Below are positions 37,749 through 50,047 of a stretch of DNA of 64,000 bases, piece by piece (the stretch's first letter is position 1; every line of letters begins with the position of its first letter). The position numbers were made by a program, and so were the translations under genes. This DNA is from Candidatus Giovannonibacteria bacterium (GTDB lineage: Bacteria; Patescibacteriota; Minisyncoccia; UBA11713; 2-01-FULL-45-33). The notes below the pieces were generated by a model that made no database searches, was not told the DNA's origin, and saw nothing but the letters and a program-made list of their open reading frames with translations. Location of the stretch: assembly GCA_016432405.1 (NCBI GenBank), contig CP066687.1, positions 42,456 to 106,455 on the forward strand, read 5' to 3'.

Positions 37749-38936
37749 TTATCTCATTTTTTTAACAAATCCATTTTGTTCCAGCCAATCAAATTTTTGC
37801 GCCAATATCTCGTCTGATCTTTTGTCCCCAGTTTTATATTGGCCTCTCGTAAATACATAAGCTTCAACTGTCGTTCCCATATCTTCTGCGGGATTCACTG
37901 ACGCATAGGGACTTACTAAATCTGCGCTTAATAATTCTGGCAACGCAAAACCCTTATTTTCCCTTTTAGACGTTTCGTAGAGGTTTCTCCATTCTGTGTC
38001 TCCATCAAAGTTATTGAATTTTTCTGCTGTAAGAGCATGTGATAACTCGTGAATCGTTGTCCTTTCAAACTCTGTTTCAAACCTTGTTTTTTGACCAGAT
38101 ATTACTTCATAAAAATTTTTTTTATTTACATCATCTCCCAATAAGAAGACTCCATCAACAAATTTATTGTTATGTGCCACAAAGCCCCTACTTGTTCCAA
38201 CACCAGCTACCTTACTTACTTCGTCCATGGCCGCTCTATTTAATATAGAAACAGGTTTTTTTAACGATTTATAATTATTCGGCATTATATCATATACTCT
38301 ATTCAATGCCTCTTGGATTTTTTGCTCTGTTGCTTTATCGAATTGCCCATTAGCCACAATCATCTTTTTTCTATTGGAGAAGTCGGCGGCCGCGGTTGTT
38401 GGGCGGAGGGCTGTATTTGTGGGGGGCTGTGAAGGCAAAATAATATTTTGCGGAGGCGGCGGTTGCAGAATGTTTGGTTTATAACAAGTCCACTCCTTGT
38501 CTGTAATATTATATTTACACTCCTCCGTTGCGGCGCAAAACTTGCTGCTTTGCCCTGGCGGGCAAGCAGGACCCGCGGGCAGTTCTTTAATGTTTAGTTT
38601 CAAATTCACCAAGTCGGGGTTTATTGTCCATAAAATTAACCACGAGGCCAGCGCGAGGAGCAGTCCCAAAATCGCCTGGATGATGCGGTCTTTGGCGTCC
38701 GCTTTGGCGTCCACGGCTTCGGATATGGCGTATTCAATCCCGCCGATGGTTATCATCACAACTGCCAAAACCGCGGCAAGCCCCAAAATAAAAGGAATAA
38801 TCCTCCCGACGTATGTCGGGAAGTCGCCCACGCTTTGGCCGGTATGGGGCAGCGGCTGGAGCAAATTATAATCAGCGGCGAAGGCGAACGCGCCGGCGAA
38901 GAGGAGAATTGCGATAAATAAAATTTTTAATTTCAT
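37749..38936 (-). CDS. VirB2/TrbC-like pilin N-terminal domain fused to a Cys-rich, Pro-rich linker and a C-terminal HExxH (putative metallopeptidase) domain
   Basis: Signal peptide plus two hydrophobic helices, GRIIPFILGLAAVLAVVMITIGGIEYAI and IIQAILGLLLALASWLILWTI, in a T4SS pilin-like topology. The C-terminus contains TIHELSHAL. Confidence 0.45.
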   Translation of the reverse strand: MKLKILFIAILLFAGAFAFAADYNLLQPLPHTGQSVGDFPTYVGRIIPFILGLAAVLAVVMITIGGIEYAISEAVDAKADAKDRIIQAILGLLLALASWLILWTINPDLVNLKLNIKELPAGPACPPGQSSKFCAATEECKYNITDKEWTCYKPNILQPPPPQNIILPSQPPTNTALRPTTAAADFSNRKKMIVANGQFDKATEQKIQEALNRVYDIMPNNYKSLKKPVSILNRAAMDEVSKVAGVGTSRGFVAHNNKFVDGVFLLGDDVNKKNFYEVISGQKTRFETEFERTTIHELSHALTAEKFNNFDGDTEWRNLYETSKRENKGFALPELLSADLVSPYASVNPAEDMGTTVEAYVFTRGQYKTGDKRSDEILAQKFDWLEQNGFVKKMR

Positions 38937-39916
38937 AATTCCGCTTTTATATTTAATCTGCCCTCGGCGTTTTGAAACAGCGCCTTCGCGTCTTTGATGG
39001 TTATTGAAACGTCCGCGGCCGACTCGGCGCCAGCAGGCGCCTCAAGGTTTAAAAGTCGGGGATTCCCGGCGTCCGGGTTGATTTTTTCTCCGTTCGCTCT
39101 CCAATCAAACCCTGCGCGCGAGAGGGAATCCAGGCCAAAATAAAACGGCTCCGCCAAAATTGAAAATTGCTCGCCGGCCCGGGCGAAAAACGACGAGAGC
39201 GCCGAGGAGCCCTGTCCTGTAAGCGGATTTGTCTTGTAGAAAACTATCTCCGGGGCGGCTGTTTTAAAGCGCGCGGTTTTGCCCGTGAAGATTTCGTTGT
39301 CCGCCGCGCTGACCCGCAGAGAAATTTCGTATTCGCCGCCGCGTATGTCCGCGAGCCGCAAGAGGAGTTTGTTTCTCCCCCCGCCGGATTGGGACAGAAG
39401 CGGTTTTCTGTCCAAGGACCATTCGTAAATCAGGTTCTGCGGTTTGAGTTTTGCGCCGTTTCTGAACAAATGCGGCACGGCGATAATTCCAACTTCGCTT
39501 CCGGGTGTTGCTAAAGCGGCTCCGCGGTAGAGCAGTGGAGTATGGGTTAAGGGATGGACAACAAAATCTATATCGGCCACGTTGATATTTGCGCGCGCCT
39601 CGTAAAAAAGCCCCTCGACAGAAGCCACCTCCACTATTATATTCAGCTCCGTTCCGAGTTTGCCCGCAGTGAAAGTTTTTTCGGAGAGTCCCACTCCGGA
39701 ATCAACCTTTTTGCCACCCAGAAACCAGGCGAAACTAGCCCTCCGCCCATCAAAGGCGAATGAGCGCGCGGTTACGGTCACAGCGCTTCCGGCGCGCGGG
39801 GACTGGGGCGAAACATTTAGCGTGAAATCGTTCGGTGAGGAAAAAGTTTGCGCGCCCGCGCCCCCCGCGGCGGCCAAGAAAATAGCGAATATTAAATTTT
39901 TGTAAAAAGTTTTCAC
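38933..39916 (-). CDS. Hypothetical secreted protein (T4SS-like cluster)
   Basis: The signal peptide MKTFYKNLIFAIFLAAAGGAGA. The protein is beta-rich. Confidence 0.45.
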   Translation of the reverse strand: MKTFYKNLIFAIFLAAAGGAGAQTFSSPNDFTLNVSPQSPRAGSAVTVTARSFAFDGRRASFAWFLGGKKVDSGVGLSEKTFTAGKLGTELNIIVEVASVEGLFYEARANINVADIDFVVHPLTHTPLLYRGAALATPGSEVGIIAVPHLFRNGAKLKPQNLIYEWSLDRKPLLSQSGGGRNKLLLRLADIRGGEYEISLRVSAADNEIFTGKTARFKTAAPEIVFYKTNPLTGQGSSALSSFFARAGEQFSILAEPFYFGLDSLSRAGFDWRANGEKINPDAGNPRLLNLEAPAGAESAADVSITIKDAKALFQNAEGRLNIKAEL

Positions 39917-40365
39917 GATTTTTTAAATGATGCCAATTTGGCTAATTTTCCCAAAGTCGGCATGTGCCCGGAAAATTCAAAAATTACGGTAAGCGCCGCG
40001 AAAGCCGTCCAGCCGGGCAGGGAATTTACGAGCGGCAAAATCTCAATCCCCATCGCCCCAATCAGCGAGAGCAGTGTTTTGAATCCCTTGCTTTCATACA
40101 TAGACATCCCCAGCATTTTAAGCCACACGTAGAATAAAAGCAGCGCGAACACATCTATTATCCAGTTTACCACCACTCCGATGATGATTAAGGTCAGGAA
40201 TAATTGCAGCCCGTCTATCAAAAGCGCGGTCAAAACCAACAAAACTGCGTTAGGAACGCTTAATTTCGCGGCTTCGGTCGTCGCGGCTTTGGCCGGCGCG
40301 GTATTTTGCATGCTCTCATTCCGGGCTTGCTGGAGGTCTGCGTAATTTGTTGCGGTTTCTGCCAT
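39913..40365 (-). CDS. Hypothetical polytopic membrane protein (T4SS-like cluster)
   Basis: 150 aa with about four TM helices. It is translationally coupled to its neighbours. Confidence 0.4.
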   Translation of the reverse strand: MAETATNYADLQQARNESMQNTAPAKAATTEAAKLSVPNAVLLVLTALLIDGLQLFLTLIIIGVVVNWIIDVFALLLFYVWLKMLGMSMYESKGFKTLLSLIGAMGIEILPLVNSLPGWTAFAALTVIFEFSGHMPTLGKLAKLASFKKS

Positions 40366-49324: not shown

Positions 49325-49354
49325 TTCACCACCTTAATTATACCACGCCCTACT

Positions 49355-50047
49355 TTAAATGGGCGTAAGCAAAGGTGGGGAAAGATTGGAGGCGGGCTCG
49401 GGGCCGGTGCCGATGCGGATTATGGGGTAAGCCGAGCCTAAAGATGGCGGTTTTTTGGGGAAAGCGAAGCTAAATACCGCAAAAGCAAGTGAAATTATCT
49501 GGAGGCCCGGGATAACGGCGGAGATAAGTTCCGCCAGGCCTTCGCCGAAGGGCCCGGTTATGATAAATTCGCCCAATGGGCCGCTAAACACCGTTCCTAT
49601 TACCTCGTCGAATTCATTTAATAACGGGGCAACATCTATCAGGCCTGATTCTAGCGCTCCGTCAATTAAATTGCCGGCTGAGAAGCCCCCTATCGGGCTT
49701 GGGTTGCCTCTGCACTCTACCGGAACCGGCTCGGCCAGGCCAAGCGTCCAAGTGCCCGGCGTTATGTTGTAGTATTGGTGGATTTTGCTGGAATCTGTCA
49801 GAAGGTATTTTTCGCCAACGAATTTAAATGAATGACAAAAAATGTCTTGGCAAACGTTTCGGCCGATATGCAAAAGCAGGCCCTTGGGGTTCTGGCAGGC
49901 CTGGATTTTTGTGATTTTGCCGCCGAAGGGCTTGTTTAATTGAAAGTCGGTGGGGTTTATTGCTGCAGACGCGATTAACGGATAGAAAGAAATAAGCGCC
50001 GTGAGTCCGGCCAAGAAAACTGCGGATTTGCGTCGGCTTGGTTTCAT
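49355..50047 (-). CDS. Hypothetical secreted protein (first gene of the T4SS-like cluster)
   Basis: The signal peptide MKPSRRKSAVFLAGLTALISFYPLIASA. It is Gly/Pro-rich. Confidence 0.4.
   Translation of the reverse strand: MKPSRRKSAVFLAGLTALISFYPLIASAAINPTDFQLNKPFGGKITKIQACQNPKGLLLHIGRNVCQDIFCHSFKFVGEKYLLTDSSKIHQYYNITPGTWTLGLAEPVPVECRGNPSPIGGFSAGNLIDGALESGLIDVAPLLNEFDEVIGTVFSGPLGEFIITGPFGEGLAELISAVIPGLQIISLAFAVFSFAFPKKPPSLGSAYPIIRIGTGPEPASNLSPPLLTPI

Follow-up and report, generated by a model that had tools for sequence, protein, structure and literature searches.

Type IV secretion systems (T4SSs) of Patescibacteria were first noted in Saccharibacteria, where transposon sequencing showed that Southlakia epibionticum cannot grow as an epibiont without the system (PMC10633639). 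A phylum-wide survey (Quinonero-Coronel et al., 2025; PMC12102498) related their VirB4 to that of the MPF-FATA class, with TrsD as the commonest virB4 neighbour alongside PrgI-type VirB3, VirB6, and VirB2-like pilins (PF18895); relaxases were nearly absent, type IV coupling protein (T4CP) genes rarely lay near virB4, VirD4 homologues being common but distant from it, and dnaA, dnaN, rnpA, and ksgA were frequently nearby, chiefly in Paceibacteria. A 2025 review places these systems on a new branch of the T4SS superfamily (PMC12857230). Here we describe a gene cluster at 37749-50047, minus strand, of a 64,000-nucleotide stretch of Candidatus Giovannonibacteria contig CP066687.1 (the whole stretch is referred to as the window). 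We conclude that this locus is very probably a chromosomal, vertically inherited Patescibacteria-type T4SS, related to the monoderm MPF-FATA conjugation machines.

The open reading frame (ORF) listing and translations give 11 consecutive, tightly packed genes in the interval, with products of 230, 344, 467, 994, 209, 134, 220, 604, 150, 327, and 395 aa, and independent gene calls on public contigs with identical DNA give identical ORFs. Four junctions overlap by 4 nt (between the genes for the 344- and 467-aa proteins, the 467-aa protein and VirB6, the 150-aa and Ig-repeat proteins, and the Ig-repeat protein and the pilin); the remaining cluster junctions are gaps of 1-21 nt. From the 344-aa protein to the pilin, these genes form a translationally coupled, ten-gene operon core. 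It codes for five recognisable T4SS parts: a TrsD-like N-domain, VirB4, PrgI/VirB3, a VirB6-like protein, and a VirB2-like pilin. Together with a TolB-like gene further left, the core also supplies exported or anchored envelope proteins: a thrombospondin-type-3-like (TSP3) protein, a Cys-containing 467-aa protein, an Ig-repeat protein, a small polytopic protein, and the TolB-like propeller. All of this sits in a run of 18 consecutive minus-strand genes (34735-52655). A preliminary description, made from the sequence without database searches, had recognised a co-directional minus-strand cluster with short or overlapping junctions, as the ORF listing and the independent gene calls bear out; it counted thirteen genes, a figure reached only if ksgA and pcrA are included, and drew the left boundary at 37749, whereas the system reaches the TolB-like gene at 35752-36993, beyond an inserted toxin-antitoxin-like module. 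The T4SS parts are as follows.

40369..42183, minus strand: VirB4-family ATPase, 604 aa (NF045971, PF19044, Walker motifs)
42185..42847, minus strand: TrsD-like protein, 220 aa (NF041427, CD1110 profile, PF26593)
42869..43273, minus strand: PrgI/VirB3-like protein with two transmembrane (TM) segments, 134 aa (PF12666)
43909..46893, minus strand: extended VirB6-like polytopic protein, 994 aa (hydropathy; orthologs against PF04610)
38616..38936, minus strand: pilin module, residues 1-107 of a 395-aa protein (PF18895)
37749..38615, minus strand: pilin tail, residues 108-395 (4-Cys module, Pro-rich linker, zincin-like domain)
37752-38384, minus strand: zincin-like, putative metallopeptidase domain, residues ~185-395 of the pilin (HELSH ... 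NPAED)

To compare this cluster with its relatives, we recovered 45 related loci with VirB4 from one-genome-per-species GTDB contigs and searched them by tblastn with all cluster proteins. The motor is the best defined of the components. The 604-aa protein matches NF045971 (conju_CD1110) above its cut-off (E 2.6e-107; 360 bits, cut-off 325) and PF19044 at 3.8e-22, and its translation carries Walker A (AGAGKS) and Walker B (ILVVDEAW) motifs, bearing out the VirB4/TrbE ATPase originally read at these coordinates. The CD1110 family, of the MPF-FATA class, is the best model from outside the candidate phyla radiation (CPR). Orthologs are 60-97% identical in the 45 loci, all of them from Patescibacteria. 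The match to NF045971 spans profile positions 178-732 and the N-terminal ~177 positions are absent, so that the 220-aa gene, separated from VirB4 by 1 nt, supplies a detached VirB4 N-domain. Its product matches residues 5-87 of the same CD1110 profile at 8.7e-6 and the TrsD model NF041427 at 1.3e-6, and has a precomputed annotation as TraC-like (PF26593); the split VirB4 N-terminus that had been suspected is thus a TrsD-like protein. Because 44 of the 45 loci (the 44 being all loci that include the region) encode TrsD in an ORF of its own, as do independent assemblies, the split is conserved and not an error, and we rejected a frameshift or assembly artefact as its cause. Only the TrsD gene parts VirB4 from the gene for the 134-aa protein, which has two TM segments and matches PrgI (PF12666) above cut-off at 2.9e-11, as had been predicted for a small VirB3/PrgI-like protein beside the VirB4 genes; practically all of the 45 loci have PrgI immediately before TrsD.

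The largest product was first read as a 1003-aa VirB6/TrbL-like giant. Its start is most likely the ATG at 46893, giving 994 aa: this ATG overlaps the stop of the gene before it (ATGA), and the 994-aa length matches the independent gene calls. Hydropathy shows at least eight hydrophobic segments in the N-terminal ~430 aa, followed by a hydrophilic C-terminal region of ~560 aa; in this C-terminal half, residues ~505-804 hold four tandem repeats of ~72-80 aa (z 8-25 against shuffles). PF04610 (TrbL/VirB6) is matched by 6 of 15 aligned syntenic orthologs (19-45% identical; best 5.6e-5), and this orthology supports identification of the 994-aa protein as VirB6-like. The hydrophobic segments and repeats of the preliminary description therefore stand, at 994 rather than 1003 aa and with no profile match of the protein's own; a PDB profile search with the TM domain returned no match. 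The combination of a polytopic N-terminal domain and a large hydrophilic C-terminal domain is shared with the extended VirB6 proteins F-plasmid TraG and the Rickettsia RvhB6 paralogues, although the C-terminal repeat domain has no detectable sequence similarity to theirs. The function of VirB6 extensions is unknown according to the 2025 review (PMC12857230).

The fifth part, encoded three genes downstream of virB4, is a pilin. The 395-aa protein begins with a Sec signal peptide (ending AFA, before ADYNLLQPLP), a YNLLQPLP motif, and two TM helices, followed by INPDLV, and its N-terminus matches PF18895 (T4SS_pilin) above cut-off at 1.2e-7, with a weak match to a pilin-like family from Mycoplasma integrative and conjugative elements (ICEs). 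Among the syntenic orthologs, 18 of 20 match PF18895 and 4 of 20 also match TrbC/VirB2; conservation is confined to the first ~107 residues. A PF18895 N-terminus plus a long C-terminal extension is just the VirB2/TrbC-like pilin fusion that had been proposed. Matches to T4SS profiles are hence not limited to the ATPase: TrsD, PrgI/VirB3, and the pilin have them directly, and VirB6 through its orthologs.

Beyond the pilin module the tails diverge. Those of 30 syntenic pilins range from ~14 to 345 residues, are mostly Cys-rich, and are largely unrelated to each other; Pfam domains were found in 4 of 20, namely Peptidase_M15_4, Extensin-like_C (M15-type), NlpC/P60 (also Amidase_5), and SLT_3. The tail in the window ends in a domain that, on its motifs and family matches, is probably a gluzincin. 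An exhaustive search found its family in only 10 cluster representatives among 1.84 billion, several of them likewise pilin fusions, and a word-index homology search gave one homologue, the protein of relative locus L008. HELSH and NPAED are kept across a 9-member family, five members of which match Peptidase_Mx1 (PF15890; best 8.7e-9), others matching M90 (PF06167) or anthrax lethal factor ATLF (PF07737); the family profile matches a zinc metallohydrolase lipoprotein, PDB 9urd, at 3.1e-6. The HExxH motif with a downstream NxxED is as in the gluzincins Peptidase_Mx1, M90 (MtfA), and anthrax lethal factor, in contrast to which the present domain is fused to a T4SS pilin and belongs to an extremely small family. 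From the signal peptide and two TM helices we infer that the tail lies outside the cell, with which its cysteines agree. We found no description of pilin-enzyme fusions in the literature searched, coverage of which was incomplete.

The gene order of the window, pcrA-ksgA-(230-aa protein)-TSP3-467-aa protein-VirB6-209-aa protein-PrgI-TrsD-VirB4-(150-aa protein)-Ig-pilin-TolB-like, is shared by most of the 45 loci spanning the region. All 45 are from Patescibacteria, and those with names are mostly Giovannonibacteria and other Paceibacteria/Parcubacteria; the nearest are Candidatus Giovannonibacteria and Paceibacteria metagenome-assembled genomes (MAGs), in agreement with the CPR origin supposed in the preliminary description. 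Recurrence of this order beside pcrA-ksgA and the origin region argues for vertical inheritance. Beyond the TolB-like gene, the segment 30308-34672 holds dnaN (30308-31411) and dnaA (31523-32887) as well as rnpA, yidC, and jag/R3H; dnaA, dnaN, rnpA, and yidC are 3-7 kb from the cluster, and about 5 kb separates the system from the replication origin region. A pilB-type ATPase region had been said to adjoin the cluster, but the T2SSE ATPase (21675-23342) lies 14 kb off, on the far side of dnaN, dnaA, rnpA, yidC, and jag. The cluster has the GC content of its flanks, without anomaly.

Comparison with described systems places the locus close to the Patescibacteria T4SSs of S. epibionticum ML1 (SEML1_0006-0019) and Nanosynbacter lyticus TM7x, with which it shares VirB4 with TrsD, PrgI/VirB3, a VirB6-like protein, a VirB2-like pilin, a monoderm architecture, the absence of a relaxase, and a chromosomal position near dnaA, dnaN, rnpA, and ksgA. 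It has one pilin gene where Saccharibacteria have an array of six divergent pilins, and differs from both described systems in the long, probably extracellular, zincin-like tail of this pilin, in an accessory set that is that of related Paceibacteria (TSP3, 467-aa, Ig-repeat, and TolB-like proteins), and in having no peptidase or lysozyme genes immediately downstream of virB4. Likeness to the MPF-FATA machines (trsC-trsD-trsE of pGO1/pSK41, prgH-prgI-prgJ of pCF10, and CD1110 of C. difficile CTn2) extends from the VirB4, for which CD1110 is the best model and above cut-off, to a separate TrsD-like gene ahead of VirB4 as in pGO1, a PrgI-family VirB3, and a monoderm architecture without VirB7/9/10. 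Unlike in those machines, a relaxase, a T4CP, a PrgK/TrsG-type hydrolase, and a recognisable VirB8-like PrgL/TraM were not found here; a VirB2-like pilin, lacking in Gram-positive MPF-FATA systems, is present; and the locus is chromosomal, vertically inherited, and off mobile elements. The cluster is an ordinary member of the already published Patescibacteria T4SS family, the rare zincin-like pilin tail apart.

Locus L001, a close relative whose VirB4 is 97% identical, is collinear with the window at ~85% DNA identity except at nearly the whole VirB6 gene (43808-46793), the pilin tail (37745-38578), the middle part of the gene for the 230-aa protein, and a helix-turn-helix (HTH) gene at 34.7-35.4 kb. 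The VirB6 proteins share 40% amino acid identity, compared with 85-97% for the neighbouring TrsD and VirB4. As judged from these alignments, close relatives have exchanged VirB6 and the pilin tail as cassettes; replacement of the whole VirB6 gene is a further difference from TraG and RvhB6. The cassette-like replacement suggests that these parts probably face the partner cell and set specificity. Such exchange is expected of host-contact or specificity determinants, for which VirB6 and the pilin tail are accordingly candidates.

We propose that the VirB4/TrsD motor docks on PrgI and VirB6, and that, once docked, it would drive pilin extraction and the formation of a surface structure based on pilin, a channel across the single membrane and the wall, or both. 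The tail of the pilin, with its disulfide module, proline linker, and zincin-like domain, would be exposed on the surface of the cell or pilus, and the Ig, TSP3, 467-aa, and TolB-like proteins may form the extracellular part that crosses the wall, or lend it stability. Such a machine would mediate interactions with a host cell that depend on contact, by effector export or import of host material; its function, we infer, is host interaction and not conjugation. A more specific version can be offered tentatively, as possible though not what we would expect: the single syntenic VirB2-like pilin of Paceibacteria would serve as a modular scaffold for display, with a conserved module that bears swapped, extracellular, disulfide-rich tails, some of them enzymatic. 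With the replaced VirB6 added, the T4SS would become a host-specific device, armed with enzymes, that breaches or remodels the envelope of the partner cell. Few machines have been shown to be indispensable to the epibiotic lifestyle of CPR bacteria, and the Patescibacteria T4SS is one of them. The locus adds no new kind of system and yields a clean Paceibacteria parts list with boundaries; apparently additional to what has been published are the putative enzymes of the pilin tails and the cassette replacement. If pilin tails do deliver enzymes to the host surface, this would give a concrete hypothesis for the role of an essential system.

That the cluster might instead be a conventional, horizontally acquired ICE, or the decayed remnant of one, is hardly credible. 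Its VirB4, TrsD, and PrgI belong to families known from conjugative plasmids and ICEs of Gram-positive bacteria, the window holds a tyrosine recombinase gene (62403-63275) and a tRNA gene (63833-63904), and a toxin-antitoxin-like module sits inside the cluster. Yet the recombinase is 12 kb off, beyond the housekeeping genes comM and PNPase, and resembles XerC/D, and the toxin-antitoxin-like module is strain-specific, occurring in none of the 45 related loci. As the preliminary description had noted for relaxase and VirD4, no relaxase domain was found in scanned window ORFs of >=200 aa and no T4CP (VirD4/TcpA) among window ORFs of >=400 aa, which are other families or cluster proteins without FtsK/VirD4 domains; nor does the window contain replication genes of an ICE, tra genes, the possible sign of a conventional ICE that the description had named, or an adjacent integrase. 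Every cluster ORF is intact and conserved, GC content is that of the flanks, and the one gene order over 45 Patescibacteria loci again indicates vertical inheritance. We therefore rejected a conventional ICE on conserved synteny, uniform GC, and the lack of relaxase, T4CP, and adjacent integrase in the window. The preliminary view of a T4SS-like CPR cluster for host interaction or uptake is upheld, and its errors of gene count, pilB adjacency, and left boundary are minor.

Two other accounts keep the machine and change its purpose. One, which we consider unlikely, is a DNA-uptake machine that takes in DNA from the host or the environment, as a nucleotide source or for transformation, and does not export protein. 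Helicobacter pylori ComB and archaeal Ced are precedents for a VirB4 machine without relaxase or coupling protein in a non-conjugative role, and neither component was found in the window, as in ComB; ComB, however, is a diderm VirB2-4/6-10 system, and the match of our VirB4 to the DNA-import ATPase CedB (NF041017, 4.6e-11) is weak, at 42 bits against a cut-off of 700, and reflects the shared P-loop. Uptake has been raised as a candidate role (PMC11665869), comF/recG/radA lie beside the T4SS in class ABY1 (PMC12102498), and in the window pcrA/uvrD is immediately upstream and syntenic, with comM at 55047-56633 and ruvB at 23559-24602; but pcrA, ksgA, dnaA, and ruvB are origin-region genes with housekeeping roles, whose adjacency may be mere core synteny. 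In Saccharibacteria, moreover, competence (comEC) is dispensable and the T4SS essential (PMC12857230), and uptake alone leaves an enzyme-bearing pilin tail unexplained. The other account, which we regard as improbable, is a pilus or surface-display apparatus only, in which VirB4, VirB3, and VirB6 extract and polymerise the tailed pilin for adhesion or wall remodelling without translocation. VirB4 is needed in Gram-negative T4SSs to dislocate pilin from the membrane in pilus assembly, the surface-exposed parts here are the most variable, Ig, TSP3, and propeller proteins are typical of surface structures, and the wall-hydrolase pilin tails of relatives could stand in for the missing VirB1. The window lacks a recognised coupling protein, as this account would have it, but one may sit elsewhere in the genome; and a conserved, large VirB6 with a 560-aa hydrophilic domain, together with a conserved and presumably cytoplasmic 209-aa protein, suggests more than pilus assembly.

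Our reading of the locus as a host-interaction T4SS also has points against it. The VirB6-like protein of the window itself matches no T4SS profile. No VirB8-like (NTF2-fold) protein was matched in the cluster proteins by Pfam, NCBIfam, or PDB profiles, which could reflect extreme divergence (VirB8 was rarely found outside class ABY1; PMC12102498), no VirB1-like component was recognised in the cluster, and a coupling protein could lie elsewhere in the ~650-kb genome. The zincin-like domain of the window falls below threshold for every family (best 0.0015, PF15890), and AlphaFold2 (AF2) modelling from a 2-sequence alignment gave a mean predicted local distance difference test score (pLDDT) of 46.8, too low to confirm the fold; similarly, the low-confidence model of the 467-aa protein gave no fold-level confirmation. 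Lastly, no Paceibacteria T4SS has a measured function, and even in Saccharibacteria the role of the T4SS has been called "completely unknown", with effector delivery and nucleotide or DNA uptake as candidates (PMC11665869).

Around these T4SS parts the locus encodes a set of accessory proteins.

49355..50047, minus strand: 230-aa protein with signal peptide, C-terminal TM helix, and 4 Cys (hydropathy), first gene after ksgA
48290..49324, minus strand: 344-aa N-terminally TM-anchored TSP3-like protein (DxDxDG motifs)
46890..48293, minus strand: 467-aa secreted protein, 6 Cys (syntenic in 26 loci)
43275..43904, minus strand: 209-aa protein (syntenic in 31 loci)
39913..40365, minus strand: 150-aa small polytopic protein (conserved position after VirB4)
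38933..39916, minus strand: 327-aa secreted tandem Ig/PKD-like beta-sandwich protein (family matches; syntenic in 37 loci)
35752..36993, minus strand: 413-aa TM-anchored TolB-like beta-propeller (TolB structures, 4.5e-8)
35369..35680, minus strand: 103-aa protein with two TM helices, downstream of the TolB-like gene (70% nt identity to L001)

The exported proteins upstream of VirB6 vary in how widely they are kept. Orthologs of the 230-aa protein occur in just 5 close loci at 34-42% identity and it has no Pfam match; from this distribution it would be a peripheral or variable member. The thrombospondin-type Ca-binding repeats noted earlier in the 344-aa protein are real: two DxDxDG motifs at residues ~58-92, present in 21 of 27 syntenic orthologs, with weak NCBIfam matches to throspo3 proteins and a profile match, at 1.4e-5, to a biofilm surface protein in its Ca-binding region; the C-terminal domain is conserved, with no fold assigned. 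The gene for the 467-aa protein is always immediately upstream of VirB6. Its product, 100% identical to HYW15_00590 of a Candidatus Giovannonibacteria MAG at NCBI, combines a conserved core motif, GGW..W......QNNPYG, with a C-terminal helical bundle. The core has no Pfam match, DUF4141 being matched in 2 of 18 family members at 9e-4, and AF2 modelling from a 21-sequence alignment (mean pLDDT 55) was confident solely at ~320-460, the helical bundle. A VirB5-like reading of this protein was not supported: Foldseek against the PDB returned generic helical-bundle matches, none at E <= 0.001. PDB profile searches with the 467- and 209-aa families gave nothing significant.

The 209-aa protein has no signal peptide or TM segment and is thus presumably cytoplasmic. 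A conserved N-terminal domain of ~105 aa is followed by a variable Pro-rich linker and a C-terminal DPYRE; over 22 orthologs, DPYRE is invariant or nearly so and the Pro-rich middle is hypervariable in length (144-433 aa). The protein has no Pfam or PDB match, and its DPYRE end could be a docking peptide. The 150-aa protein, which has positional orthologs in most loci and no Pfam match, consists of a cytoplasmic N-tail and about three TM helices, with motifs DG.Q and E.IP....P.WT; its identity as a second pilin was rejected (hhalign probability 0.5%). In a Candidatus Vogelbacteria locus (L019, 11773-13146) it is joined to the Ig-repeat protein as one 457-aa fusion, which indicates that the two are functionally linked. 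The family of the 327-aa Ig-repeat protein matches BiPBP_C in 7 of 20 members (1e-5), as well as PKD_3 and Ig_3, and its profile matches the Hoc Ig-like protein at 0.005. The TolB-like gene directly follows the pilin in 34 loci, and its family shows DPPIV_N and THOC3 propeller matches, with PG_binding_1 in two members. The 103-aa protein, without a Pfam match, is a possible peripheral member; just upstream of its gene, at 35747-35720 (minus strand), is a 12/12 sigma-70 consensus promoter (TTGACA, 16-nt spacer, TATAAT). A scan for promoters and terminators was otherwise uninformative.

The cluster is bounded and interrupted by genes that are not part of the T4SS.

50051-50869, minus strand: ksgA (PF00398, 1.4e-50)
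50847-52655, minus strand: pcrA/uvrD (PF00580, 1.5e-77)
37009..37744, minus strand: insertion outside the T4SS proper, with an AbiEii/DUF6036-type nucleotidyltransferase (190 aa) and a 65-aa ORF

ksgA is co-directional with the cluster and 3 nt upstream of its first gene, and ksgA-pcrA occupies the same position in most related loci. The insertion at 37009-37744 parts the pilin gene from the TolB-like gene, and none of the 45 related loci carries it. A 37-bp duplication, copied from where the TolB-like gene starts, flanks the insertion, and the first 13 residues of its 65-aa ORF are identical at 12 of 13 positions to the start of the TolB-like protein; its nucleotidyltransferase matches PF08843 at 2.3e-6. 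It looks like a recently inserted, strain-specific toxin-antitoxin-like module. At the left edge of the cluster, 34735-35337 encodes a 200-aa protein with an HTH and sigma-70 region 4; the segment around it, 34672-35364, holds unrelated genes in L001 and is another variable cassette. To the right, divergent from pcrA, 52730-53842 (plus strand) encodes a LysM-LysM-Peptidase_M23 protein with tblastn matches in equal relative position and orientation in five related loci; it is possibly a T4SS wall hydrolase, or simply a housekeeping protein.

Two further features of the window lie away from the cluster. At the right window edge, 12 kb from the T4SS, the XerC/D-like tyrosine recombinase gene (62403-63275) adjoins the tRNA gene (63833-63904) and has no link to the cluster. 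At 4110-6687, ~40 kb from the T4SS, is a complete diversity-generating retroelement, comprising a reverse transcriptase (4110-5111, minus strand; RVT_1, 7.4e-25) and a template repeat (TR, 5514-5642) and variable repeat (VR, 5980-6108) of 129 nt with 87% identity. A minus-strand ORF of 241 aa (5962-6687) carries the VR at its 3' end, and on the minus strand the two repeats differ exclusively where the TR has an adenine.

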